44,592 nt of DNA from a virus (Duplodnaviria > Caudoviricetes): the IMG/VR virus record IMGVR_UViG_3300044477_000003, positions 1-44,592 of that record, one strand, 5' to 3'. A program made the position numbers and the translations under genes. Shown piece by piece: positions 20,758 through 38,255 of this stretch (positions within the stretch are counted from its first letter, which is position 1; every line of letters starts with the position of its first letter). The notes under the pieces were generated by a model that saw only the letters and a list, made by a program, of their open reading frames with translations, did no database searches and was not told where the DNA came from.

Positions 20758-22710
20758 ATGGCAAGAGAACTTCATATAGATATTGAGACATTTAGTTCCG
20801 TTGATATTAAAACCTCCGGAGCTTATAAGTACACCCAATCACTTGACTTTGAGATTCTTCTTATAGCCTATGCCTTTGACGATGAACCAATCAAGATAAT
20901 AGATTTGGCTCAGGGTGAACAAATCCCTCAGGAATTAATTGACGGGTTGCTTGACACTGAAGTTCATAAGTGGGCTCACAATGCTACATTCGAACGTAAC
21001 TCTTTTCGTCAATATGGGTATGACATCCCAATTGACCAGTGGTATTGTTCAGCGGTCAAAGCGGCTTACTGTGGTTTGCCTCTTTCCCTGGACTTAGTCT
21101 CTAAGGCTTTGAAGCTTGAGGAGAAAGGGAAACTGTCAACAGGTAAGGCATTAATTAGATACTTTTGCATTCCTTGCAAACCCACGAAAGCAAACGGGAT
21201 GAGGATGAGAAACTTTCCACAGGATGACCTGGAAAAATGGGAAGACTTCAAACTCTACTGTATAAACGACGTTGAGGCTGAGAGGGAAATCGGAAAAAGA
21301 CTTGAACAATATGAAATGCCAGACTTTGAAAGAATCAACTATATAGTGGACCAGGAAATCAATGACGCAGGGGTTTTGGTTGACCTTGGTATGGTTCAGA
21401 ATGCAGTTGATATTGACAATAAGTTCAGTGATGAAACCACTGAAAGAATGAAAATATTAACCGGGGTAGAAAATCCAAACAGCCCGTCACAGTTAAAGGA
21501 ATGGTTGAGTAGTGCCTTAGGAAAAACTGTAAGCACCTTGGCAAAAGACTCTGTCCTCGAACTCCTTAGCGAATCTGATGACGAGGCTGTTTCGGATGTT
21601 CTTGATGGGCGTTTAAAAATGTCAAAGTCTTCCACAAAGAAATATGTATCAATGCTCAATTGTACATGTGGAGATGGAAGGGCTCACGGTCTTTTCCAGT
21701 TCTATGGGGCAAACAGAACAGGACGTTGGGCCGGGCGTTTAATCCAATTGCAGAACCTGCCTCAAAACCACATGAAGGATTTGGACCTTGCAAGAGAAGT
21801 AATTGCCTCAGGTGATTATGACCTTGCAATGATGCTTTACGACAACATTCCAAACATCCTATCGGAACTCATTCGAACTGCTCTTATTGCTCCTGAGGGT
21901 TACACCTTTGCAGTATCTGACTTTAGCGCAATCGAGGCGAGGGTTCTTTCCTGGGTTGCTCAGGAAGAATGGAGGCTTGAGGTATTCAGGACCCACGGAA
22001 AAATATATGAGGCTTCAGCGGCTATGATGTTTGGGGTGCCAATCGAATCAGTGACTAAGGGTTCTGAGTTAAGGCAAAGAGGTAAGACTGCCGAACTTGC
22101 TCTTGGCTACCAGGGTTCGGAAGGAGCTATGGAAAAAATGGACAGAGAGGGAAAAATCCCACCCAATGAGAGAAAGGTAGTTGTAAATAAGTGGCGTAAG
22201 GCAAACCCAAAAATAGTAAAACTTTGGGCAGATGTTGAGTCAAGCGCTATTCATACAATCGAGACTCGGAAGTCAACAACCCTTGGTTTTTTAAAATTCC
22301 ATTACGATGGTCATATCTTCAGAATTGAACTACCCTCAGGTCGAAGTCTTTTCTACATTCAACCCAAAATGGGGGTAAACAGATGGGGCATGAAAAGTAT
22401 AGTCTTTAAGGGTATGGACCAGGTTATAAAGCAATGGACATCGATTGAAACCTACGGGGGTAAACTGGTTGAGAATATTGTTCAGGCAATCTCAAGAGAC
22501 TTACTTGCTTATTCAATGCAGGCTCTGAGAGAAGAAGGGTTCAAGATGGTGATGCACGTTCATGACGAAGTCATTTGCGAAGTAAAGGAAGAAATTCAAA
22601 AGGAACAATTAGAACTCATGGAAACCATTATGGGCTATGAGGTTCCCTGGGCTCCGGGACTTCCTCTGGTTGCTGATGGTTATACTACTAAATTCTATAA
22701 AAAAGATTAA
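20758..22710 (+). CDS. DNA polymerase family A with 3'-5' exonuclease
   Basis: DIET, HNATFE, RTGRWAG, DFSAIEARV (motif A), RQRGKTAELALGY (B), HVHDE (C). Confidence 0.95.
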   Translation: MARELHIDIETFSSVDIKTSGAYKYTQSLDFEILLIAYAFDDEPIKIIDLAQGEQIPQELIDGLLDTEVHKWAHNATFERNSFRQYGYDIPIDQWYCSAVKAAYCGLPLSLDLVSKALKLEEKGKLSTGKALIRYFCIPCKPTKANGMRMRNFPQDDLEKWEDFKLYCINDVEAEREIGKRLEQYEMPDFERINYIVDQEINDAGVLVDLGMVQNAVDIDNKFSDETTERMKILTGVENPNSPSQLKEWLSSALGKTVSTLAKDSVLELLSESDDEAVSDVLDGRLKMSKSSTKKYVSMLNCTCGDGRAHGLFQFYGANRTGRWAGRLIQLQNLPQNHMKDLDLAREVIASGDYDLAMMLYDNIPNILSELIRTALIAPEGYTFAVSDFSAIEARVLSWVAQEEWRLEVFRTHGKIYEASAAMMFGVPIESVTKGSELRQRGKTAELALGYQGSEGAMEKMDREGKIPPNERKVVVNKWRKANPKIVKLWADVESSAIHTIETRKSTTLGFLKFHYDGHIFRIELPSGRSLFYIQPKMGVNRWGMKSIVFKGMDQVIKQWTSIETYGGKLVENIVQAISRDLLAYSMQALREEGFKMVMHVHDEVICEVKEEIQKEQLELMETIMGYEVPWAPGLPLVADGYTTKFYKKD

Positions 22711-25429: not shown

Positions 25430-26813
25430 AAAAGACTTACACGAATATCAGCAAACGGCTGTTGACCATATCATAGAGAATACTCACGGGGCTTTGTTTC
25501 TAGAGATGGGATTGGGTAAAACAGTCTCTACCTTGACAGCAGTCAACAGGCTGATGTTTGAAGAACTGGACATTGCCAATGCTTTAGTGGTTGCTCCCAA
25601 AAGGGTGGCCGAGAGTGTATGGGTAGACGAAGTAGAAAAATGGGAGCACCTTAGTCATTTGAAAGTTTCAAAGATAATAGGGAACGATAAACAAAGACGC
25701 AAGGCCTTATCTGAGAAAGCAGACATCTATACAATAGGCCGGGACAACATTGCATGGCTGTGTGGTCAATATGGGGGTTCGATGCTTCCATTTGATATGC
25801 TGATAATAGATGAGTTAAGTAGTTTCAAGAACCCAAAGTCTGTAAGGTTCAAGGCTCTCAGGGGTGTACAACCTTCATTCAAAAGAGTAGTTGGATTGAC
25901 AGGAACCCCTGCCCCTAATGGATTGATTGACTTATGGAGTCAAATCTATTTACTTGACAGGGGCAAAAGACTTGGAAAATTCATCAGCCACTACAGAGAG
26001 GACTATTTCAAACCCGGAAAAAGGAATGGGGCAATCGTTTACTCTTATGACTTGGTCACTGATGGTGAACAAAAGATTCATGAGAAAATCGGTGACATCT
26101 GCATGAGTATGAAGGCTAAAGACTATTTGGATTTACCGGGTCGAATAGACAACATCATCAACATTAAATTCCCTCCAGACATCCAAGCCCAATATGACGC
26201 ATTTGAAAAGGAACAAGTCCTTTCACTATTCCCTGACGTAGAAGAGGGAAAAGAAATTTCTGCAGTGAACGCGGCGGCACTATCCAATAAGCTCCTCCAG
26301 TTTTCCAATGGGGCTGTGTATGACGAGAATAAAAAGTATCATATAATCCACGACCTCAAGATTGATGCAGCAAAGGAAATCATTGAGGATGCTAATGGCA
26401 AACCGGTATTGATAGCCTGGACCTACAGGCATGACATGGAACGTCTGATGGTTGCTCTGAAAGGTTACAAACCCCGGGAACTTAAAACAGACCAAGACAT
26501 CAAAGATTGGAATGCCGGAAAAATCCAGGTGATGCTTATGCACCCAGCTTCTGGAGGTCATGGGTTGAACCTTCAAGCAGGTGGCCACATCATTATTTGG
26601 TTCGGTCAAACCTGGTCCTTGGAACTTGAACAACAGTTCAATGCTCGTCTGGATAGACAGGGACAAAAAGAAGTAGTAATTATTAACAAACTGGTTGCTT
26701 GCAAAACTATTGACCAAGATGTGATAAAAGCTCAGGAAAGAAAGAGCGCTAAACAGGATGGTCTTATGGAGGCAGTCAAAGCTAAAATAAAGAAGTATGT
26801 CGGAAAAGTTTGA
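25422..26813 (+). CDS. SNF2-family helicase
   Basis: MGLGKT, DELS, LTGTP, GHGLNLQ, QFNARLDRQGQ. Confidence 0.92.
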   Translation: MNEKDLHEYQQTAVDHIIENTHGALFLEMGLGKTVSTLTAVNRLMFEELDIANALVVAPKRVAESVWVDEVEKWEHLSHLKVSKIIGNDKQRRKALSEKADIYTIGRDNIAWLCGQYGGSMLPFDMLIIDELSSFKNPKSVRFKALRGVQPSFKRVVGLTGTPAPNGLIDLWSQIYLLDRGKRLGKFISHYREDYFKPGKRNGAIVYSYDLVTDGEQKIHEKIGDICMSMKAKDYLDLPGRIDNIINIKFPPDIQAQYDAFEKEQVLSLFPDVEEGKEISAVNAAALSNKLLQFSNGAVYDENKKYHIIHDLKIDAAKEIIEDANGKPVLIAWTYRHDMERLMVALKGYKPRELKTDQDIKDWNAGKIQVMLMHPASGGHGLNLQAGGHIIIWFGQTWSLELEQQFNARLDRQGQKEVVIINKLVACKTIDQDVIKAQERKSAKQDGLMEAVKAKIKKYVGKV

Positions 26814-27690
26814 CAAACAGTATTTGCGTATTGCTCAGGTCTGGTCTGAGAATTCTTACGCTAAGAGATTAAAGGTCGGGGCAATCATAGTCAAAGACCA
26901 GATGATAATTTCTGATGGGTATAATGGTTCACCGAAAGGGTTCAAAAATGAATGCGAGTATATTGAATACCAGAGAAAAGTCCATCCTTACTTCGATATA
27001 TTCGGGATTGAATCCGATACAGAAGGGAGTATATTTAAAAATGGGAAACCGATTTCTAAATGGATTCATACTTCTGGAAAGTACCAATGCTGTAAAATTG
27101 GGGGTATTCAAAGAAGAGTATCTAATGTTGTAATCAGTACATTTGTTGAAAATCCGGACCCCGATTTCTATACGCAAGTAAATCACATAAACTATGATGT
27201 GGAGGACAATAGACTTATAAATTTGGAATGGTGTTCTAATAGATATAATTCTATTCATAGAAGTCAAAGAATAGACAAGTCTTGCGAACATCCTGGAGTT
27301 CATTTTGACCCGGATAGAAATAAATGGGTTGCTGCTGTTTGGACCCCGGAAAAATACATACATAAGAGATTCGATAATCCAAACGAAGCGGCCGAGTTTT
27401 ATATGAGTTCAGTTGACCCAAGGACTTTTCAAACGGTTAAATATACAGATATAAAGACTCACCCTTATGTTCTCCATGCTGAGGCCAACGCCATTACTAA
27501 AGTGGCTCAGTCAACTAACAGTAGTAAGGATGCAACCCTTTACACCTTGGTCTCTCCTTGCATGGAGTGTTCAAAGTTAATCATTCAAGCAGGAATAAAA
27601 AGGGTTGTGTATGCTGAAGAGTATCGAATCACTGAAGGCCTGGACCTTCTAAGACAAGCAGGAATAATAGTTGACCAAATAAATTTATAA
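26797..27690 (+). CDS. dCMP deaminase with in-frame HNH-AP2-like insertion
   Basis: VGAIIV..GYNG, HAEANA, SPCMEC; ~160-aa insert containing VNHIN..DNRLINLEWC..N and GVHFD..KWVA. Confidence 0.85.
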   Translation: MSEKFDKQYLRIAQVWSENSYAKRLKVGAIIVKDQMIISDGYNGSPKGFKNECEYIEYQRKVHPYFDIFGIESDTEGSIFKNGKPISKWIHTSGKYQCCKIGGIQRRVSNVVISTFVENPDPDFYTQVNHINYDVEDNRLINLEWCSNRYNSIHRSQRIDKSCEHPGVHFDPDRNKWVAAVWTPEKYIHKRFDNPNEAAEFYMSSVDPRTFQTVKYTDIKTHPYVLHAEANAITKVAQSTNSSKDATLYTLVSPCMECSKLIIQAGIKRVVYAEEYRITEGLDLLRQAGIIVDQINL

Positions 27691-27693
27691 GGA

Positions 27694-27867
27694 ATGGAGG
27701 AAGTTTATTTTGAACAGTTGAAAGTCTTGATTGAAGGGAAGACAGACGTAGAGTTTATAACAGGAGTGAAACAACCAATGAAAGTGAGAATTGAAGATAG
27801 GACCTATAAAGTAATAGGTATAACTAAGACAAAATTGTTGGAATATTTTATGAGTCCAACGGGTTGA
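27694..27867 (+). CDS. Small hypothetical protein (57 aa)
   Basis: Manual translation MEEVYFEQLKVLIEGK...; fills the gap in the operon. Confidence 0.5.
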   Translation: MEEVYFEQLKVLIEGKTDVEFITGVKQPMKVRIEDRTYKVIGITKTKLLEYFMSPTG

Positions 27868-27901
27868 TTTACTGCATAGTAGTACTTTTAACGAAATTAT
27901 T

Positions 27902-27954
27902 TTTCAATTTTTACTGAAAATATTTTTTTATCTGAAGAACTATTCTTATATTTG
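27902..27954 (+). promoter_or_regulatory. Repeated phage promoter, copy 3
   Basis: 53-nt consensus ending TATATTTG. Confidence 0.75.
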
Positions 27955-28000
27955 CATCGTAATCAATTACAATAATGTCTCACTTTAAAAAGAGTAAAAA

Positions 28001-28858
28001 ATGAAAGCTCAATTATTTGAATCAAAATCGGAAAAAGAAATTCGCTTAGCGAATGGTGTTCAATTCTTCTCTGAAGAAGCAGAAGAAAAAGAGGCTTTTA
28101 TAGCCCGTGTAACTGAAGTCATTGAACGTGACTATGTTGACACCCTGGAATTAACAGAGGTTAATGCTGAGACCTTCAAAAAGAAGAATACAAAGCAACT
28201 TCAAAAATCTCGTTCTAATGCCATCGGGGTAGAACTTAGAATCATTCAGGAAATCCTGGTTGAACGCGGTGCACTGGAAGAACATTCTTCTGAGGGTGGT
28301 ACTATCTATAATGGTACAATCACCGACGAGGATATACCGGAAGAGGGCTCAGAAGAACAGAAAAAGGGATTGGCCAAGGGTACTAAACCAGAAGGTAAAA
28401 AGGAAAAAGAACCTAAAGCGCCTAAGGAACCTAAAGCCCCAAAAGCTGAGAAAGAACCTAAAGCCCCAAAGGAACCTAAGGACTTAAAGAAACAACTTTC
28501 AGACGACGAAGTTCTTGCTGCTCTTGATGCTGCTGAAAAGAACAAAGGCCACATGGTTACTTTCCATTGTACCAAAACCAAGGCAGAAGCCAATGGAATT
28601 ATCAAAGGAGTTCGCTTGGATAAACGCAACAACTTCATTCAGTATCGAATCCTTGCTGAAGATGGTAACATGTACGGAAAAGGTATCGACGCCTCTGACT
28701 TAGTAGTTGGAGAACTTGCTCCAGTGGTTGAAAAAGAACCTAAGGTCAAAAAGGAAAAAGCACCAAAAGTTGAAGAAACTCCTGCTGATGAAACTGCTGA
28801 TGCTACAGCTCCTGAAGAAGATTTCTCTGGTGAACAAACTGAAAAAACCGAAGAATAA
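28001..28858 (+). CDS. Highly charged protein with KEPKAP repeats, paralogue of 37884-38255
   Basis: Shared CTKTK..GIIKGVRLDKR.NFIQYRI..GKGI domain. Confidence 0.8.
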   Translation: MKAQLFESKSEKEIRLANGVQFFSEEAEEKEAFIARVTEVIERDYVDTLELTEVNAETFKKKNTKQLQKSRSNAIGVELRIIQEILVERGALEEHSSEGGTIYNGTITDEDIPEEGSEEQKKGLAKGTKPEGKKEKEPKAPKEPKAPKAEKEPKAPKEPKDLKKQLSDDEVLAALDAAEKNKGHMVTFHCTKTKAEANGIIKGVRLDKRNNFIQYRILAEDGNMYGKGIDASDLVVGELAPVVEKEPKVKKEKAPKVEETPADETADATAPEEDFSGEQTEKTEE

Positions 28859-28860
28859 GT

Positions 28861-29151
28861 ATGAACATTCTGGAAAAGGCAAACCAGATTATCAATGAAA
28901 GGTCCGAGGAAAAAGAAAGAGAATACGGACCTTTCATTGATTGTAACGAACGGGCGGCTAAAATAGCGTCCGTTCTTTGCAATAAAGAGGTCACAACCCT
29001 GGACATATATCACTTTCAGATTGCCCTGAAGTTAGCCAGGGAGGCCTACGCTCACAAAGAAGATAACTTGCTTGATGCAGTGGCTTATATGGGTGCACTG
29101 AATAACTACCACAATGGTGTGGAACCAACTTCTAAAAAAGAAGAGCAATGA
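28861..29151 (+). CDS. DUF6378-like small helical protein (nucleotide-modification associated)
   Basis: ILEKA..IIN.R....YG, LKLARE, DNLLDAVAY. Confidence 0.65.
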   Translation: MNILEKANQIINERSEEKEREYGPFIDCNERAAKIASVLCNKEVTTLDIYHFQIALKLAREAYAHKEDNLLDAVAYMGALNNYHNGVEPTSKKEEQ

Positions 29152-29714
29152 ATATAGAAGATTTTAAACCACAAAGATATTGTTTCGAGGAGGTATTTGA
29201 AAAGCAGAAAGAACTCAAGTTATTATATGAACCAGATGCAAAAGAGGTATATGCCAACTTTGATATTGACTCCTACGAAGACCAAGAATATTTCAAAAAA
29301 GTGTGTTGGCGCATCACTGAAGAACTTATGGAGGCTTTGGAAGATAGCGGAAATCCAAATCACTTCAAGGAAGAACTCATTGATGGCTTCAACTTCACGA
29401 TGGAACTTTATTTGATGTATGGATGGGGATTTGAAAAACTGCCCAAGTTTGTTCAGACAACAACTCTTCCAATCAATGACAAGGTTCTCATGGTAATATA
29501 TCAACTTGGAATAACTGCCAATGTTCTGAAGAACAGACAGTGGCGCCGGTCTCAGTACCTTGTTGACCTACTCATATTTGAATCAAGATTCAAAGAAATC
29601 TGGTCAGCTTACTTAGACATCTTTTATCACCTTGGTATGTCCAACGAAGACATCTTAGACCTTTGGTCTTTGAAGTACCAAGTTAACTTATTTAGAATCA
29701 ATTCAAATTATTAA
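29148..29714 (+). CDS. All-alpha NTP pyrophosphatase (dimeric dUTPase/dCTPase, MazG-like)
   Basis: EELMEALE...KEELID; C-terminal K..VNLFR...NY. Confidence 0.65.
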   Translation: MNIEDFKPQRYCFEEVFEKQKELKLLYEPDAKEVYANFDIDSYEDQEYFKKVCWRITEELMEALEDSGNPNHFKEELIDGFNFTMELYLMYGWGFEKLPKFVQTTTLPINDKVLMVIYQLGITANVLKNRQWRRSQYLVDLLIFESRFKEIWSAYLDIFYHLGMSNEDILDLWSLKYQVNLFRINSNY

Positions 29715-29715
29715 T

Positions 29716-30942
29716 ATGAAAGCACTCGGGATGATTTGTGGGGTTGGCTCCATGCTAATCGGAGCTAAACGTCAAGGATATGATATTGTAGGAAACATTG
29801 AATGGAGGCAGTACTATCATTCGGGAACTTTCGAACACAACTTTCCTGGAAGTTTTATGGTCGATACCCTGAAGGATTTGACCCACGAACAAATTGAATC
29901 CTGCAAGGACTTAGACCTTATTATTGGACACACTGAGTGTGGGAACTTCTCGAACATGAGAGCCAATAAGAACAACGCTATTGATGCAGGGGACAAGGGT
30001 GACATACCTCAGTTCGTTGAGGCAGTTCAAACATTGCAACCAAAATTCTTTGTAATGGATAACCTGCCAAAATCCCTCATCGTGGCTGATTGGTCTTATT
30101 ATATGGATGCTCTCCCCGACTATGACATTCACTTTGAGTGGGTGAACAACTATGGCTACGGGAACGTTCAAAAGAACCGGAAAAGACTTTTCATAATAGG
30201 GTCCAAGAGAGAGCTAGAATTTTACTTCATCCCTGGAGAATTCGAACACAACACATCAGTACTTGAACGCATTAGTGAAATAAGTCCAGACGCTGAGAAC
30301 AATGATAGTTTGGACCTTGATGAAGTGTATGGGGGTTGGGGTCGATACCAGTTTGACAAAGACTATATTGAAAGACCGATTGAAGAGAATCGTTTGACTC
30401 TGAGGGCTTTCCAAGAACTCATAAAGGATTACCCCAACAACATCAACTTCCCTTATTTCAATAAAAAAGGTGAGCAAAAGTTCAAAATTGGGTTCTCCAA
30501 GATTAATGTCAACGGTCCTGCAATGGTCCTCTCTGGAGGCGGAGCCTGTTTTGATAACCACTTCAGGAGTGACACCTTATACCCTTTCACTATTCGGGAA
30601 CGGGCCAAGATTCAGGGTTGCCCGGACGACTTCGTGTTCTTCCCAAAAGGAGTGACCAAGACCGGAAAGCAATATGGCTCACTAATTAAACAGACCGGTA
30701 AGTTCATGCCTGTTGAATTTTGTACCTTTGTCACTGGTCAGATTAAGTCATTCTTAGATGGAACCCGTAAGGATGATGACTACACTCAAAAGAGATACCT
30801 GAACCCAAATGAATTCGTAGACAAAAACAAATACGAGTTTTGCCAAATGGCTGGGTACACCAATGACTTAGGGGTGTGTAATTTCTGTGGTTCTAAAAAA
30901 TACTGTAAACTTAAAAGTAAAGAAAATGGCGAGAATATTTAA
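29716..30942 (+). CDS. Divergent C5-cytosine DNA methyltransferase-fold protein
   Basis: Motifs in canonical order: I ICGVGS, IV GHTECGNFS, VI MDNL, VIII Q.NRKR, IX RERAKIQGCPDDF, X KQTGKFMP; Cys4 tail. Confidence 0.8.
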   Translation: MKALGMICGVGSMLIGAKRQGYDIVGNIEWRQYYHSGTFEHNFPGSFMVDTLKDLTHEQIESCKDLDLIIGHTECGNFSNMRANKNNAIDAGDKGDIPQFVEAVQTLQPKFFVMDNLPKSLIVADWSYYMDALPDYDIHFEWVNNYGYGNVQKNRKRLFIIGSKRELEFYFIPGEFEHNTSVLERISEISPDAENNDSLDLDEVYGGWGRYQFDKDYIERPIEENRLTLRAFQELIKDYPNNINFPYFNKKGEQKFKIGFSKINVNGPAMVLSGGGACFDNHFRSDTLYPFTIRERAKIQGCPDDFVFFPKGVTKTGKQYGSLIKQTGKFMPVEFCTFVTGQIKSFLDGTRKDDDYTQKRYLNPNEFVDKNKYEFCQMAGYTNDLGVCNFCGSKKYCKLKSKENGENI

Positions 30943-31669
30943 AGACTGTTTAGAGATGATTCAGGAGATGGATAGAGAACTAAAAGTCTCCGGAATCACA
31001 GTGCCTGTGAAGCACTATCAAAATCAAATACTCGAAGGAGATAACCAGAACACTAAGGAACTCCTTGGGGTCAACTTCATTATATCCAAACCCTTTTTGA
31101 AAAAGAAGGAGATGCTTGGCTTCCTGTTCAAAGGGGAGTCCGATATGATTGAGAAGTATTGCCTAACTGAATTGCAAGACCGTTTGAATCGGGATGGATT
31201 GAACCCCGGGAACTCTTACAAAGTTCGTCTGGACCTTTGGCAAAAGCTTATGTCAAAGTCGGATGGTGATATATTTGACTATACTTATTCGGAGAGAATA
31301 AACTACAAAGGACAATTGGACAATGCTCTCTCGGCACTGAAGGATGATGAGCATACTCGCAGGGCAATGGTGATGATATTCCAACCAGAGGACACGCTTG
31401 AGTCTGGAGGGTTTCAAACTCGAATCCCCTGTTCGATTTCTTACCAGTTTCTTATTCGGAACAATAAGTTGATGGTCCTTTATTACATCCGCAGCAACGA
31501 CTACTTTAATCACTTCGGAATTGATATTTGGCTCACTCATGCCATTCAGAATTATGTTGTGGAACAACTTCAAGATACTTACCCGGGATTAAAATGTGGA
31601 CCATTAAACTATTATGCTGGAAGTTTTCACGCTTATCATAAGGAATTAAGTCAATGGGTGATTTATTAA
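30926..31669 (+). CDS. Thymidylate-synthase-fold enzyme, probable dCMP (hydroxy)methyltransferase
   Basis: TRRA, IPC, YQFLIR, RSND.......D, SFHAY; Asp at the E. coli ThyA Asn177 position. Confidence 0.75.
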   Translation: MARIFKDCLEMIQEMDRELKVSGITVPVKHYQNQILEGDNQNTKELLGVNFIISKPFLKKKEMLGFLFKGESDMIEKYCLTELQDRLNRDGLNPGNSYKVRLDLWQKLMSKSDGDIFDYTYSERINYKGQLDNALSALKDDEHTRRAMVMIFQPEDTLESGGFQTRIPCSISYQFLIRNNKLMVLYYIRSNDYFNHFGIDIWLTHAIQNYVVEQLQDTYPGLKCGPLNYYAGSFHAYHKELSQWVIY

Positions 31670-31683
31670 ATATTGAAATTTTA

Positions 31684-31736
31684 TTTCACTTTTTACTGAA
31701 ATAATTTTTCTATCTGGATAAAAAGTCATACATTTG
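31684..31736 (+). promoter_or_regulatory. Repeated phage promoter, copy 4
   Basis: 53-nt consensus ending TACATTTG. Confidence 0.75.
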
Positions 31737-31760
31737 AGTCATACTTAAAAACAACAGATT

Positions 31761-31937
31761 ATGGAAGCAAAAGACGTATATATGTTCTGTATAAGAAACT
31801 GCGTACATCAACTTAAAACATGTGACAAATTAGGCCCTGAAGCAATTAACGCATTCAGAATGTCAGAAGTTTTGGCGATAGCTTTTTGCAAATTGAAAGA
31901 GGATGTTCTAAACGATATTATAACATGTGTGGAATAA
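31761..31937 (+). CDS. Small Cys-containing hypothetical protein (58 aa)
   Basis: Manual translation MEAKDVYMFCIRNC...; A-rich leader after promoter. Confidence 0.55.
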   Translation: MEAKDVYMFCIRNCVHQLKTCDKLGPEAINAFRMSEVLAIAFCKLKEDVLNDIITCVE

Positions 31938-33277
31938 TCATAACAAGAGACTTTGAAAGAATACCCCTGTTGAAACACAGGGGGATTGAATCCAACTTCG
32001 AAAGAGGTCACGGGTTCTTCTTCGGTCATCATCGCTTGCCTATCCAGACTCTTGAAGGGGATGGGTATAAACAACCAATCAAACTCAAAGATGGGGGTTT
32101 GCTTCTTTATAATGGGGAGATATTCAACACACCATCAAAGTATAGTTCAGATGTTGAATACCTCAGGGACCTGTTCAACTCTGACAACATCAATGACATT
32201 CTGGAGGAAGCAAACTACTGGGATGGGTTTTGGGCAATCGTCCATGTAACCCCAAACGGATTCATGTATTGTTTCACAGACCCTTTAGGAAAGAAACAAC
32301 TATACTATAATGAAAGGGGTGAAATCTGCTCAGAGATAAGACCGTTGGTTCGTAACAATCCATTCGATGAACTTTATAAGAGTTCAGTCTACAAATGGGG
32401 GTACAACACTAATGACCTAACCCCTTGGAAAGGAGTCAAACGAATCATGCCAAATAGACTTTATGTCTTTTGTTCTGGTAGAATTCTGAATGTTCACCCA
32501 TACCTTTATTTTGATTGGTTCAAGAACCAACCTAAGGAAGACATCAAGACGTTACTCTATCAATCAGTTGAATCAAGATTAATTTCTAAAGTCTATAGAA
32601 TAGGGGCTTTGGTTTCAGGGGGTTTGGATTCATCCATAATTGCCCGGATTTTGAATGATTTGGGGGCTCCTGTGGTATATTATACCATAGAGAATAATGA
32701 ATCAGAATATGCCCAGGAATTGGCCCAATATCTGGGTATTTCTCTCAAGGGTTTAACCTATGATATTGATGAGGAAATGGCTGAGAGTTTTCGTTGGAAT
32801 GAAACCCCGATTGACTTAGGCTCAGTAATCCCTCAGCATAAACTCTTAGGGGTTGTGCCTGAAAAGATTGTTCTGACTGGAGATGGAGCGGATGAACTGT
32901 TTGGGGGGTATCGACGCATAAAGACTTATGATTCTCAAAAGTCTGATGTATTCGAAGAACTTCCTTTTTATCATTTACCTCGATTGGACAGGGCTTCGAT
33001 GAGGTACACCATTGAACTTAGGAACCCATTCTTGTCCCATGACATTATCAAGTATGCTTTGGCATTACCTTATTCAGAAAGGATTGAGAAGAAACATCTA
33101 AAGGACGCATTCAGAGGTTTGCTTCCTGACAGTATCATTGACCGGGCAAAGATTCCAATGAAGAATGACCAAGTAAGAGAAACCCCTGAAGCCTACAAGG
33201 CCAAGGTATTTAATATGTTTTATAACACCCAACAATGGAACGTTTTACATTCGGAAAATATAAAGGCAGACTTATAA
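31925..33277 (+). CDS. Asparagine synthetase B-like glutamine amidotransferase
   Basis: MCGI N-terminal nucleophile, HHRL, NGEIFN, SGGLDSS, TGDGADELFGGY, ELRNPFL. Confidence 0.9.
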   Translation: MCGIIITRDFERIPLLKHRGIESNFERGHGFFFGHHRLPIQTLEGDGYKQPIKLKDGGLLLYNGEIFNTPSKYSSDVEYLRDLFNSDNINDILEEANYWDGFWAIVHVTPNGFMYCFTDPLGKKQLYYNERGEICSEIRPLVRNNPFDELYKSSVYKWGYNTNDLTPWKGVKRIMPNRLYVFCSGRILNVHPYLYFDWFKNQPKEDIKTLLYQSVESRLISKVYRIGALVSGGLDSSIIARILNDLGAPVVYYTIENNESEYAQELAQYLGISLKGLTYDIDEEMAESFRWNETPIDLGSVIPQHKLLGVVPEKIVLTGDGADELFGGYRRIKTYDSQKSDVFEELPFYHLPRLDRASMRYTIELRNPFLSHDIIKYALALPYSERIEKKHLKDAFRGLLPDSIIDRAKIPMKNDQVRETPEAYKAKVFNMFYNTQQWNVLHSENIKADL

Positions 33278-33363
33278 GTGACGTCTGTATAATAGACTCA
33301 GACTACGTGAAATGGGCTGTAAAGAAAAAATTAATTGTTTTACCAAAGTATATAATCGTATGA
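33235..33363 (+). CDS. Small FGKYKG-motif protein (DUF3820-like, 42 aa)
   Basis: Manual translation MERFTFGKYKGRLISDV...YVKW; stop overlaps the dUTPase ATG. Confidence 0.55.
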   Translation: MERFTFGKYKGRLISDVCIIDSDYVKWAVKKKLIVLPKYIIV

Positions 33364-33806
33364 AAATTGTAAAAGTAAGAGATGTAAAGACCCCTACTCG
33401 GGGCACAACGAAATCTGCAGGGATTGACTTTTTTATTCCGAACGATTTTCCGGGGTCACACTGGTTGGCTCCTGGTCAAGATGTCAATATTCCTTCAGGG
33501 GTCCATGTCAAAGTGCCTGAGGGGTATGCTCTAATCGCAATGAACAAATCCGGAGTTGCAACAAAGAAACACCTCCAGGTCGGAGCCTGTGTCATTGATG
33601 AGGATTACCAAGGAGAGGTTCATCTTCATGTTCGCAATATAGGTATGGATGTACAGGAACTTCTACCCGGAGATAAGCTCGTTCAAATGCTATTAGTTCC
33701 TGTACTCTATGCGGAAGTCTGCCCAGTTGACTCACTCGAGAAGTTATACAATGGGGAGACAACCGAAAGGGGTGAAGGTGGATTCGGTTCAACAGGTGAT
33801 AAATAA
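33360..33806 (+). CDS. dut: Trimeric dUTPase
   Basis: AGIDF, KSG, VIDEDYQGE, Q, RGEGGFGSTG. Confidence 0.92.
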   Translation: MKIVKVRDVKTPTRGTTKSAGIDFFIPNDFPGSHWLAPGQDVNIPSGVHVKVPEGYALIAMNKSGVATKKHLQVGACVIDEDYQGEVHLHVRNIGMDVQELLPGDKLVQMLLVPVLYAEVCPVDSLEKLYNGETTERGEGGFGSTGDK

Positions 33807-33816
33807 GGAGGGAACA

Positions 33817-34476
33817 ATGAGACTAATTAAACCATCCTTTGAAGTATTAACTCCTATAGATAGGGGTTCAATCCTGAAAGCCATTGAGTTGGCTGGTCGT
33901 ACCTGTTATAAGTCTGAAGATAAAATCTCGGATGACTCTGCAAGTAAGTTTGTTGAAATGATAGTTGGCCGAGGGCATTTGTCTGTGGTAGAACATCAGT
34001 CTGTTTCTGTTAAGTTCATTTGCGACCGAGGTGTCTCTCATGAACTGGTCCGTCACAGAATTGCCTCCTTCTCTCAGGAGTCAACCCGTTATTGCAATTA
34101 TGCCAAGGATAAGTTTGACCATCAACTTACTTTCATTATTCCTTGTTGGTCCAAGATTAAACCTGGAGAGGGAGACCAATCAAACTTCGGGCTTCAAACT
34201 CATGGTGAAATCCTTTGGCTTAATGCAATGCAGAACTCACAGGATATTTACAACAGCCTTATTCAGACAGGATGGACTCCTCAAGAAGCAAGGTCTGTTC
34301 TACCCAATTCACTGAAGACAGAAATCGTTGTCACTGCCAACCTCAGAGAATGGAAAGAAATCTTTCGTCAACGTTGCTCACAGGCTGCACATCCCCAAAT
34401 GCGTGAGTTGATGATACCTCTGAGGGGTTTGTTTCAAGAGTCCTTACCTGAAATATTCGGAGATGGAAATCAATGA
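33817..34476 (+). CDS. thyX: Flavin-dependent thymidylate synthase
   Basis: GHLSVVEH, ELVRHRIASFSQESTRY (RHRx7S), ARSVLP, NLREW. Confidence 0.95.
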   Translation: MRLIKPSFEVLTPIDRGSILKAIELAGRTCYKSEDKISDDSASKFVEMIVGRGHLSVVEHQSVSVKFICDRGVSHELVRHRIASFSQESTRYCNYAKDKFDHQLTFIIPCWSKIKPGEGDQSNFGLQTHGEILWLNAMQNSQDIYNSLIQTGWTPQEARSVLPNSLKTEIVVTANLREWKEIFRQRCSQAAHPQMRELMIPLRGLFQESLPEIFGDGNQ

Positions 34477-34741
34477 CAAATTAGCTGAAAGACTTAAACA
34501 ACTTGGAATTCTGGATGAAACCGGGACACGAGAATATAACGTAGGGGCTTCAGATTATTCTAAGCATTTGATACAACCCTGGGCAATCTGGCTCGAGTAT
34601 GGGCTTAATCCTTGGGACGCTGACATAGTTAAAAGGGTTCTCAGGAACAAGAAAGGGGACACCCGAAAATTGGACTACGAGAAAATCATACATATTTGCA
34701 AGGAACGCATCCGGCAGATTGATGAGGAGATAAATGACTAA
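34463..34741 (+). CDS. DUF3310 / T7 gp1.7-like protein (possible nucleotide kinase)
   Basis: VGASDY..HLIQPW, IVKRVLR.K, DYEKI pattern. Confidence 0.55.
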   Translation: MEINDKLAERLKQLGILDETGTREYNVGASDYSKHLIQPWAIWLEYGLNPWDADIVKRVLRNKKGDTRKLDYEKIIHICKERIRQIDEEIND

Positions 34742-35210: not shown

Positions 35211-36080
35211 ATGAAGCAACAATTTGACCGCAAACTTAGGCTCTCCACGGATAACAAAGCCCGGTTAACTCAGATTAACGAAATCCTGGAAGAGTATGTA
35301 GAAGATGGATATAGGCTTACTCTTCGACAATTGTACTACCAATTAGTCTCGAGGGACTTCATTCCTAACAAACAAGACGAGTACAAGAAGTTAATGAACA
35401 TCCTCAAGAAAGGTCGTATGGCTGGAATTGTAGATTGGGATGCGATCGAGGACCGAGTACGTAAGCCAATACTTCCTTATTGGGTCACGGGTATTCAGGA
35501 CGCTATCAATGACACCATTCGTCAATATCGTCTTAATAGAATGGAAGGCCAAGAACAAAACATCGAAGTATGGGTTGAGAAGGACGCACTGTCTGGGGTT
35601 CTCAGCAGGGTGACGAATAAATATCACATTAGACTTATGGTCAATAGGGGGTATACGTCAATCTCTGCTTTATATGATGCTCAAAAGCGTCTGAATAATG
35701 GGGACGTAATTCTTTACTTTGGAGACCATGACCCTTCAGGGTTGGACATGCTTCGGGACATCAAAGACCGCATGCTTGAGTTTCACCTTGATGTTGAGGT
35801 AGTTCCAATTGCATTGACCATGCAACAAGTAAGGGCTTTTAATCCTCCGCCGAACCCTGCTAAATTTGAAGACCCCCGGGCCGAATGGTATATTCGTGAA
35901 TACGGAAAGACTTCTTGGGAGTTGGACGCACTACCTCCTAAGGAATTAATCAGACTTTGTGAGGAGTCTATTCTCCAGAGGATTGACCTTGATTTATATC
36001 ACGATGTGATTAAGCAAGAGCAAAAGGATATTATTACAATGAAATCAAAATTCAACTTAAACAATGAAGACGATGAATAA
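35211..36080 (+). CDS. Topo VI-A/Spo11-like protein (winged helix plus Toprim)
   Basis: LTLRQLYYQL, VWVEKDAL, GDHDPSG, ELDAL. Confidence 0.75.
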   Translation: MKQQFDRKLRLSTDNKARLTQINEILEEYVEDGYRLTLRQLYYQLVSRDFIPNKQDEYKKLMNILKKGRMAGIVDWDAIEDRVRKPILPYWVTGIQDAINDTIRQYRLNRMEGQEQNIEVWVEKDALSGVLSRVTNKYHIRLMVNRGYTSISALYDAQKRLNNGDVILYFGDHDPSGLDMLRDIKDRMLEFHLDVEVVPIALTMQQVRAFNPPPNPAKFEDPRAEWYIREYGKTSWELDALPPKELIRLCEESILQRIDLDLYHDVIKQEQKDIITMKSKFNLNNEDDE

Positions 36081-37792: not shown

Positions 37793-37858
37793 TTTCATTT
37801 TTTACTGAAAATTTTTATCATTTTATCGTTGTAGTCTGAAGTAGATGATGTATATTTG
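37793..37858 (+). promoter_or_regulatory. Repeated phage promoter, variant copy 6
   Basis: TTTCATTTTTTACTGAAA upstream box and TATATTTG, with 13 nt extra spacing. Confidence 0.55.
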
Positions 37859-37883
37859 TACCATAATTAAAAACAAAAACATC

Positions 37884-38255
37884 ATGGAAGCAATAGACAT
37901 CAAGAAATTAAAAAAGTACAGTTCAAAACAACTGAGTAATATACTTGAAAAAGCTGAAGGTGAAAAGGCAAATATCATCAGAGAATTACTAACCACGCGT
38001 GGTATCTTCCAAGAACCTGAAATCATTCAGGAAAGAACCAAGGAAGAAATATTGGAGGAAGTTCGTAAGAACAGTAAAAACTTAAGAGTTAAGTTCCTTT
38101 GTACTAAAACAAAGACTATCGTATTTGGAATTATTAAAGGGGTTCGTCTGGATAAACGCACGAACTTCATTCAGTATAGAATCAAGACCCTAAGAGGTAT
38201 GTTCGGAAAAGGTATTCAATCACCAGACTTAGTGTTCTTAGGGTATAATGCTTAA
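37884..38255 (+). CDS. Basic protein, short paralogue of 28001-28858
   Basis: Shared C-terminal domain; ATG 37884 has an A-rich leader. Confidence 0.75.
   Translation: MEAIDIKKLKKYSSKQLSNILEKAEGEKANIIRELLTTRGIFQEPEIIQERTKEEILEEVRKNSKNLRVKFLCTKTKTIVFGIIKGVRLDKRTNFIQYRIKTLRGMFGKGIQSPDLVFLGYNA

Follow-up and report, generated by a model that had tools for sequence, protein, structure and literature searches.

A modular phage gene cluster for a proposed pre-replicative cytosine replacement, built around a thymidylate-synthase homologue with an active-site arginine

The window analyzed here, the whole 44,592-base stretch of the IMG/VR virus record IMGVR_UViG_3300044477_000003, is the complete genome of an uncultured phage, with direct terminal repeats. 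On its plus strand, between positions 26797 and 34741, lies a real and conserved gene module that would represent a new form of pre-replicative cytosine replacement and that is common to many unrelated phages in a mix-and-match form. Three proteins are central to it: a homologue of thymidylate synthase of the deoxycytidine monophosphate (dCMP) type (TS), an AsnB-like amidotransferase (AsnB) and a protein with the fold of DNA cytosine-C5 methyltransferases (MT). The product is probably an amide-bearing base, which would be a new one. What is established below concerns the genes, their combinations, the protein folds and the residues of the active sites; from these we infer a chemistry for the module, and we regard as evenly balanced the proposal that it makes an amide-bearing C5-substituted cytosine before replication by way of TS and AsnB, with MT as an optional late participant.

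The window was annotated by Pfam, PHROG and NCBIfam scans of its 45 open reading frames (ORFs). These confirmed every gene of the cluster, as well as the nearby DNA polymerase of the phage, that had been named in the original prediction from the letters alone; for the last gene of the cluster, which has no Pfam match, the DUF3310-like assignment is supported by ESM Atlas clusters.

26797..27690, plus strand: dCMP deaminase with an in-frame HNH-endonuclease-like insert of ~160 amino acids (PF00383, phrog_174, HNH phrogs)
28001..28858, plus strand: Lys/Glu-rich ORF
28861..29151, plus strand: DUF6378 protein (PF19905)
29148..29714, plus strand: all-alpha dNTP pyrophosphatase (dNTPase) of the dUTPase_2 family (PF08761, phrog_173)
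29716..30942, plus strand: MT, rewired DNA cytosine-C5 methyltransferase fold, 408 amino acids (PF00145)
30926..31669, plus strand: TS, dCMP-type thymidylate-synthase homologue, 247 amino acids (PF00303)
31925..33277, plus strand: AsnB-like glutamine amidotransferase, 450 amino acids (PF00733, Asn_synthase, and PF13537, GATase_7)
33360..33806, plus strand: trimeric dUTPase, accessory, for dTMP supply (PF00692)
33817..34476, plus strand: ThyX flavin-dependent thymidylate synthase, for dTMP supply (PF02511; TIGR02170 above cut-off)
34463..34741, plus strand: DUF3310-like protein (ESM Atlas feature score 0.96)
20758..22710, plus strand: phage family-A DNA polymerase PolA (PF00476)

The best PDB sequence matches of TS are MilA and T4 gp42, and its model (pLDDT 92.9) superposes on MilA with a VIA Z score of 23.4 (rmsd 1.9, 219 residues) and on two other short thymidylate-synthase homologues, the HY126 dCMP hydroxylase and T4 gp42, with Z scores of 23.0 and 20.2, respectively. 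When TS is aligned to canonical ThyA, Arg166 takes the place of Leu143, Cys169 is the catalytic cysteine, Asp192 corresponds to Asp169 and Asp200 to Asn177. Among 192 distinct relatives that reach at least 150 bits with a profile of MT-linked TS genes, Arg166, Cys169, Asp200 and His235 are each present in 191 and Asp192 in 190; an apparent Gly143 variant was given as Arg by alignment to a hidden Markov model. According to the available text of PMC13326640, Asp at position 177 selects dCMP, residue 143, which adjoins C5 and its methylene, is Leu with methyl products and Asp or Glu with hydroxymethyl products, and Asn169 marks hydroxylases. At position 177 TS has the Asp of the dCMP hydroxymethylases, in keeping with its first description as dCMP-type; however, it has Arg where the hydroxymethylases MilA (DVAC) and T4 gp42 (DFMC) have Asp, and Asp where the 5-hydroxy-dCMP synthases have Asn169. 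The combination of Arg143 and Asp169 therefore fits none of the residue patterns given in that text. The Xp12 5-methyl-dCMP synthase, with Asn143, also lies outside the clade, scoring 46.9 bits against 200-279 bits for members. Because the window encodes ThyX and the three jumbo-phage genomes with TS that were searched encode canonical ThyA, TS is not required for dTMP. None of TS, MT and AsnB reaches the score threshold of the NCBIfam family for its housekeeping counterpart, and 113 GenBank phage records match a member of the TS clade at E <= 1e-15.

AsnB joins an N-terminal MCG-type Ntn (N-terminal nucleophile) glutaminase domain to a PP-loop ATP synthetase domain, and it matches human ASNS and E. 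coli AsnB in the PDB. M1-C2-G3, SGGLDS and GDGADELF are conserved in a 43-sequence alignment; the window protein has MCG, SGGLDS, GDGADELFGGY and Arg353, all expected of an AsnB-type enzyme, and NGEIFN in place of the family consensus VGEIFN. It scores below the cut-offs for housekeeping asparagine synthases (TIGR01536, 173 bits versus 267; NF006949, 100 versus 499). In asparagine-synthetase folds a carboxylate is adenylated and the AMP is then displaced by ammonia. Taken together, the invariant Arg at position 143 and the AsnB partner suggest that the C5 substituent carries a carboxylate.

The conservation of the module was examined in scans seeded with each of the three proteins. The MT-seeded scans gave 165 loci, the metagenome part being the best 80 of 143 matches. 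Among the 55 distinct loci whose flanks measure 5 kb or more on both sides, 49 contain TS (a lower bound, as a nested-ORF filter lost true genes in GC-rich loci), 40 contain AsnB and 37 contain both; an all-alpha dNTPase and a deaminase are each present in 42 of these loci and a P-loop kinase-like gene in 25. The joint occurrence of the core genes in other phages, the check named with the original prediction, is thus borne out, and it persists at 30-45% protein identity and with altered gene order. PolA is found in 76 of 166 clustered loci. In the TS-seeded scans, of which the metagenome part was the best 80 of 433 matches, the scaffold comprises a kinase, the dNTPase, a variable slot, TS, the deaminase and PolA. 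The slot is occupied either by MT or by a divergent TS-fold family of ~260 amino acids (profile match 78%, E 1.7e-5), here called the slot protein, in which the Cys and the equivalent of Asp177 are invariant. Of 105 distinct TS loci with flanks of at least 4.5 kb, MT fills the slot in 51 and the slot protein in 39; the remaining 15 have neither, and the two never occur together. At the level of whole genomes, the slot protein occurs in 0/37 MT genomes, and MT is absent from 36/38 slot-protein genomes. A TS tree of 143 leaves requires at least 11 changes between the two states. A nucleophilic Cys and an acidic residue of the cytosine type are retained in both occupants. Since each offers a Cys for C6 and some genomes do without it, a downstream position in the pathway suits both best.

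The slot-protein layout is present in the cultured phages Mycobacterium Muddy (gp49-gp44), Pseudomonas PMBT14, Microbacterium Huwbert, which also encodes canonical ThyA, Brevundimonas Strzyga and Clostridium CPD4. Gordonia phage GTE2 is a further cultured phage with a TS of this clade. A cultured phage with the MT version was also sought, and a GenBank phage search with MT gave ordinary methyltransferases only (best identities 21-31%). The slot-protein family is unannotated and adjoins an Arg143 TS in 72 loci (for example L244:7382-8167, Muddy gp47 at L308:3955-4848 and CPD4_74 at L166:7208-7957); no convincing Pfam match was obtained for the three members scanned. A heterodimer of TS and the slot protein was considered and set aside, since TS also pairs with MT or AsnB alone. 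A second TS in genome G013, considered as a slot protein, is a dUMP-type enzyme, and sugar and methyltransferase genes near TS in jumbo phages (L267/L272/L279) were not used, as they are not conserved across the clade.

AsnB keeps company with TS rather than with MT. The AsnB-seeded scan covered the best 80 of 575 matches, from 13 of 64 database parts, and yielded 51 distinct loci; 27 of them contain TS and 2 contain MT, while the slot protein is in 0. MT was found in 0/24 AsnB genomes (of which four reach 90% completeness or more and another two carry terminal repeats), the positive control being detected, and it was likewise absent from two other complete jumbo genomes; TS was present in 2/2 complete AsnB genomes. 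Every complete jumbo genome with TS has AsnB (4/4) and none has MT (0/4); the slot protein is absent from the three tested and canonical ThyA present in the three searched. In jumbo phages AsnB lies beside a kinase-like gene and far from TS (~100 kb in G040 and G041). Within the phage family of the window itself, L318-L329 have the order DUF6378, dNTPase, TS, AsnB and no MT, the TS start in L325 being 2 bases past the dNTPase stop; their identity to the window is 67% for VapE, 72% for SNF2, 63-65% for TS and 53-54% for AsnB. Conversely, L014/G003 (92% complete) has TS and MT, with AsnB not found, and AsnB was detected in 0/6 genomes with MT and no nearby AsnB. One phage family thus shows three partner states (TS with MT and AsnB, TS with AsnB, and TS with MT), and TS can evidently function beside either AsnB or MT as its sole partner, beside the two together, or beside the slot protein. 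Given these varied partners, the substrate of AsnB is most simply the product of TS. A tally in which AsnB seemed dependent on MT (39/51 versus 2/54 loci) was a seeding artefact, which the AsnB-seeded scan overturned. The original prediction of an undescribed cytosine-modification pathway is consequently supported as to its pre-replicative arm and its co-occurring genes and not as to its order of steps, as both of its options made MT the source of the amidated group, and AsnB accompanies TS in MT-free genomes while MT also occurs without AsnB.

MT was modeled with a pLDDT of 94.2, and its top Foldseek matches are M.HaeIII (E 1e-15), MET1 and M.HhaI, with CmoX (8yf3) at rank 8 and 16% identity. 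The fold, the catalytic Cys75 and the motif VIII arginines Arg155 and Arg157 of C5-methyltransferases are retained, these residues in 85/85 distinct loci; the other key residues are His72, Glu74, Asp115, Lys329 and a C-terminal Cys cluster. Compared with the phi3T methyltransferase, motif I is ICGVGSM instead of FCGGGLG, motif IV HTEC instead of GPPC and motif VI DNL instead of ENV, which agrees with its description as rewired. The C5-methyltransferase signatures FxGxG (I), PC (IV), ENV (VI) and GN (X) are accordingly replaced by ICGVG, EC, DNL and GK, and TIGR00675 gives 63.6 bits against a cut-off of 100.65. Across the 85 loci the motif VI Asp is present in 83 and His72 in 79, position 73 is Pro or Thr and position 74 is Glu, Asp, Lys or Ser, while at position 329, in motif X (QTGKFM in the window), 81 loci have Lys, 3 have Arg and 1 has Asn. 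Lys329 may occupy the site of HhaI Asn304 and CmoX Arg350, on the pattern of HhaI motif X, the phi3T protein being unaligned there. The residue before the catalytic Cys is Glu or Asp in 67/70 AsnB-linked loci and, in 15 loci scored as AsnB-free, Lys in 7, Ser in 4, Asp in 2, Tyr in 1 and Glu in 1, these being raw counts without correction for kinship; in two of the 15 (L162 and L180), to which the single Glu74 and one of the Asp74 belong, tblastn does detect AsnB. Such a split would be expected if MT meets an amide where AsnB is present and a carboxylate where it is not.

A gene resembling amino-methyltransferases (PF01555, NPPY-like) is beside or fused to MT in many loci, occurs in 18/39 MT loci with AsnB and 0/12 without, and is absent from the window. 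Its product has an N-terminal DYHCxCxxC motif in L101:2216-4594, L016:9992-12247 and L003:6692-7603. In one T4-like locus an S-adenosylhomocysteine hydrolase gene (L366:2079-3350) lies between TS and this gene, and the MT member L164:5905-8256 contains an intein (Hint and endonuclease domains) just past its catalytic Cys motif.

A pathway that would be consistent with these data begins with the all-alpha pyrophosphatase, which would destroy dCTP to give dCMP; it is read as a dCTPase because a separate trimeric dUTPase is encoded. Some of the dCMP would pass through the deaminase, the dUTPase and ThyX to dTMP. On dCMP, TS would form a Cys-C6 adduct and, with methylene-tetrahydrofolate, in line with the retained Asp169, an exocyclic methylene; a nucleophile that carries a carboxylate and is bound by Arg166 would then capture this methylene. 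By analogy, our first choice for the nucleophile would be an amino acid, for instance glycine, which would yield the deoxycytidine analogue of N-alpha-glycinylthymidine or of 5-carboxymethylaminomethyluridine (cmnm5U), an identification that we hold to be doubtful; 5-carboxymethyl and 5-carboxy products are the alternatives. AsnB would then amidate the carboxylate with ATP and glutamine-derived ammonia, the DUF6378 protein, the DUF3310-like protein or a host kinase would carry the product to the triphosphate, and PolA would incorporate it. Finally, MT would flip the already modified base in DNA and use Cys75 for further side-chain chemistry, a tailoring task that the second, divergent TS-fold protein would perform in other phages. 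The likely purpose would be to shield the DNA against host nucleases.

A dNTPase usually accompanies TS: dUTPase_2 or MazG/PRA-PH is present in 76/90 slot-bearing TS loci. Of 90 related loci, 49 have only a P-loop kinase-like gene, the Pfam dNK matches of which are weak, 20 only DUF6378 or Nmad1 (DUF1599), 21 neither and none both. DUF6378 occupies the kinase site of other loci and may be a replacement for the kinase. The protein of ORF 34463-34741 has as its ESM Atlas neighbours (0.96, 0.96 and 0.95) clusters with 43%, 28% and 11% DUF3310 members, and DUF3310 is linked to the T7 gp1.7 nucleotide kinase in the available part of PMC9339283. This link and the mutual exclusion of kinase and DUF6378/Nmad1 make the two small window ORFs candidate kinases. 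The DUF3310-like protein was found by tblastn in the closest relatives only and is not a constant member of the module. Profile comparison of DUF6378 or Nmad1 with DUF3310-like, MazG and dUTPase_2 families gave probabilities below 1%, and that of DUF6378 with Nmad1 only 11.6%. In the deaminase, clear intein motifs are not seen at the ends of the HNH-like insert, which L009 and L083 share and L003 and L082 lack.

Several observations weigh against the proposal that TS and AsnB make an amide-bearing base. GATC is strongly avoided genome-wide (observed/expected 0.04) and CTAG is reduced (0.31), so selection apparently still acts at some C-containing sites; CCGG (1.48) and GCGC (1.42) are enriched, and so are not avoided. 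The carboxylate is deduced from a single conserved Arg and the link to AsnB, and the action of MT on DNA rather than on a nucleotide is assumed from its fold. According to the accessible part of bioRxiv 10.1101/2024.12.05.627091, five of seven deaminase-linked Asp177 TS homologues gave plain 5-methyl-dCMP (5mdCMP). No P-loop dNMP kinase of the kind found in relatives is present in six frames of the window. TS was unmatched in 16/29 AsnB genomes, all of them fragments 17-54% complete. Furthermore, AsnB was found in 0/30 slot-protein genomes, which do hold TS, so that the carboxylate there would have to stay unamidated or be removed. The exchange of MT and slot protein comes down to four independent contrasts on well-supported branches (sign test p 0.125), and two slot-protein genomes have a distant sister of MT, with scores of 86 and 91 bits where a true member reaches 450; the residue-74 counts, as noted, are uncorrected. 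The sister family (L315/L316, in G062 and G074) has SHPTC or SSPDC in motif IV, ENL in motif VI and Lys in motif X.

Among the other explanations, one retains the order of the genes and changes the chemistry: TS would make 5-hydroxymethyl-dCMP or a similar neutral product, AsnB would exchange the ATP-activated hydroxyl for ammonia to give 5-aminomethylcytosine, and MT, the slot protein and the amino-methyltransferase would elaborate it. The closest solved structures are indeed hydroxymethylases (MilA and T4 gp42), loci with TS and AsnB and no MT are explained equally well, and the gene combinations fit nearly as well, which also counts against the amide proposal. C5-methyltransferases can exchange the hydroxyl of 5-hydroxymethylcytosine (5hmC) for nucleophiles, although a literature search on this brought nothing relevant. 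However, the near-invariant Arg stands where hydroxymethylases have Asp or Glu in the available text of PMC13326640, the AsnB family retains the asparagine-synthetase motifs for carboxylate adenylation, and no glycosyltransferase, as already remarked in the original prediction, or carbamoyltransferase, the customary partners of 5hmC, was matched among the 45 window ORFs or the common neighbour clusters of MT loci that were scanned; we consider this explanation unlikely. We judge extremely improbable that ordinary metabolic helpers and an ordinary methyltransferase cluster by chance in DNA with canonical C or plain 5-methylcytosine (5mC). The dUTPase, ThyX and deaminase are common phage genes and GATC and CTAG are avoided, but the sub-threshold scores of TS, MT and AsnB against housekeeping families, their co-occurrence at low identity in shuffled order and the near-invariant, clade-specific active-site changes argue against it.

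The two options of the original prediction both place MT before AsnB. In one, MT would be a CmoX-like DNA carboxymethyltransferase using host-made carboxy-S-adenosylmethionine (carboxy-SAM), and AsnB would convert its product to 5-carbamoylmethylcytosine in parallel to the TS product. In the available text of Yang et al. (PMC12783734), CmoX of phage S-B43 moves carboxymethyl from carboxy-SAM onto cytosine C5 using Arg350, the asparagine-synthetase homologue CmoY ligates glycine, SPPC and Arg350 are needed to pass the CmoX filter (4257 CmoA against 5615 CmoX were counted), and a cluster of ammonia-using, glutaminase-bearing ligases is predicted. That cluster, the match of the MT fold to 8yf3 and the Lys or Arg at the motif X site, which by motif analogy would correspond to CmoX Arg350 and to the engineered M.MpeI N374K (PMC12783734), speak for this option. 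Against it, MT lacks SPPC and has Asp for the motif VI Glu; the CmoA profile TIGR00740 matched neither the window genome (0/1) nor its relatives (0/37, 20 of them at least 90% complete), with an E. coli control passing and host CmoA outside the search; and AsnB and MT each occur without the other. Moreover, replacement of deoxycytidine by TS and the dNTPase would leave few free C5 positions. The option is quite unlikely, and its chemistry would be of the CmoX/CmoY kind rather than new. In the second option, TS would give plain 5mC or 5hmC, as in Xp12 or T4, MT would add a carboxylated group such as 3-amino-3-carboxypropyl and AsnB would amidate it. The deaminase, dNTPase, PolA and Asp177 TS do mark modified-cytosine contigs, the 5mdCMP results fit it to the extent of the text available (bioRxiv 2024.12.05.627091), and the cofactor pocket of MT is altered. 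However, TS has Arg in place of the Asp/Glu of hydroxymethylases or the Leu of ThyA, it is not of the Xp12 clade and AsnB does not rely on MT, so that this option is very unlikely.

Set beside known systems, the module resembles the T4 scaffold in its logic and CmoX and CmoY in some of its parts, and it belongs to neither. With the T4 pathway (gp42 hydroxymethylase, gp56 dCTPase, gp1 kinase and Cd deaminase) and MilA it shares the Asp177 TS fold, an all-alpha dNTPase, a deaminase, its own polymerase and, in many relatives, a kinase-like gene; it differs in the Arg that replaces the water-activating Asp143, in having no glycosyltransferase and in its amidotransferase and methyltransferase-fold tailoring genes. 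The S-B43 system, which makes 5-carboxymethylcytosine and its glycine amide, likewise has a C5-methyltransferase fold and an adjacent asparagine-synthetase homologue, and its basic motif X residue may have a counterpart in Lys329; here, in contrast, AsnB follows TS and not the methyltransferase, and the available text of PMC12783734 has no match for 'thymidylate' or 'kinase'. The flavin-dependent 5-hydroxy-dCMP synthases RB69 gp48, DLP3 gp80 and HY126 AfhB (PMC13326640, as far as available; 9iqc/9iqu) have the same short TS fold with Asp177, and TS matches 9iqc with a Z score of 23.0, tied with MilA; their Asp169Asn marker and Glu143 are not in TS, and sugar genes are not found here. In Xp12, too, an Asp177 TS, the 5-methyl-dCMP synthase, is linked to a dCMP-deaminase gene, that of a 5mC-selective deaminase (bioRxiv 2024.12.05.627091, available part), but it belongs to another clade and has a long C-terminal tail and a neighbouring DHFR-annotated gene. 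The thymidine hypermodifications of M6, PaMx11 and ViI, in the accessible text of PMC8989533, offer the analogy of an amino acid that captures a C5 exocyclic methylene and is then processed by exchangeable tailoring enzymes. In those systems a kinase and an amino-acid:DNA transferase work on 5-hydroxymethyluracil that is already part of the DNA, whereas the base here is cytosine; no Pfam match to such a kinase or transferase was obtained among the 45 window ORFs. A literature search, which left subscription papers and supplements mostly uncovered, so that an earlier computational mention is possible, gave no description of the Arg143 TS clade or the cassette, and PMC7824862 has no passage on either.

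More broadly, and tentatively, at somewhat less than even confidence, the Arg143 TS clade may build a carboxylate-bearing cytosine dNMP (amino-acid or carboxymethyl) by a reaction undescribed for this fold, and so found modular amide-type DNA bases in siphoviruses, T4-like phages and jumbo phages, including the cultured Muddy, PMBT14 and Huwbert; the MT fold and the second TS fold would then be convergent Cys-dependent tailoring enzymes and DUF6378/Nmad1 a non-P-loop nucleotide kinase. New phage bases have each brought new enzyme chemistry and an anti-restriction strategy. If true, this would extend the TS fold by a reaction, give the C5-methyltransferase fold a task other than methylation and supply functions for two DUFs of nucleotide modification. 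The four-gene minimal version in L318-L329 and the presence of the TS clade in cultured phages make the module directly testable. In addition, an asparagine-synthetase gene beside a Lys-type methyltransferase does not warrant a default CmoX/CmoY annotation.

In the window, the plus-strand genes between PolA and the dCMP deaminase include, in this order, those for a primase-helicase of the VapE type, a nuclease with a VRR-NUC domain and a helicase of the SNF2 family, and the DUF6378, dNTPase, MT and TS genes abut or overlap one another. One relative within the TS subclade of the window comes from an assembly assigned to Saprospirales (Bacteroidota). Other loci repeatedly have HhH-GPD genes and genes resembling uracil-DNA glycosylases close to the module (L112:2054-2575, L348:3885-4817, L364:9780-10136 and L095:6684-7058), one of them fused to a kinase-like domain. 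ORF 28001-28858, which contains a long Lys/Glu/Pro-rich repeat and is conserved in close relatives, shares a domain (one cluster) with ORF 37845-38255, both without an assigned function. ORF 35211-36080, of 289 amino acids, matches phrog_6247 ('DNA topoisomerase', E 1e-80) and no Pfam family, and most close relatives have a UvrD-like gene at the corresponding site.

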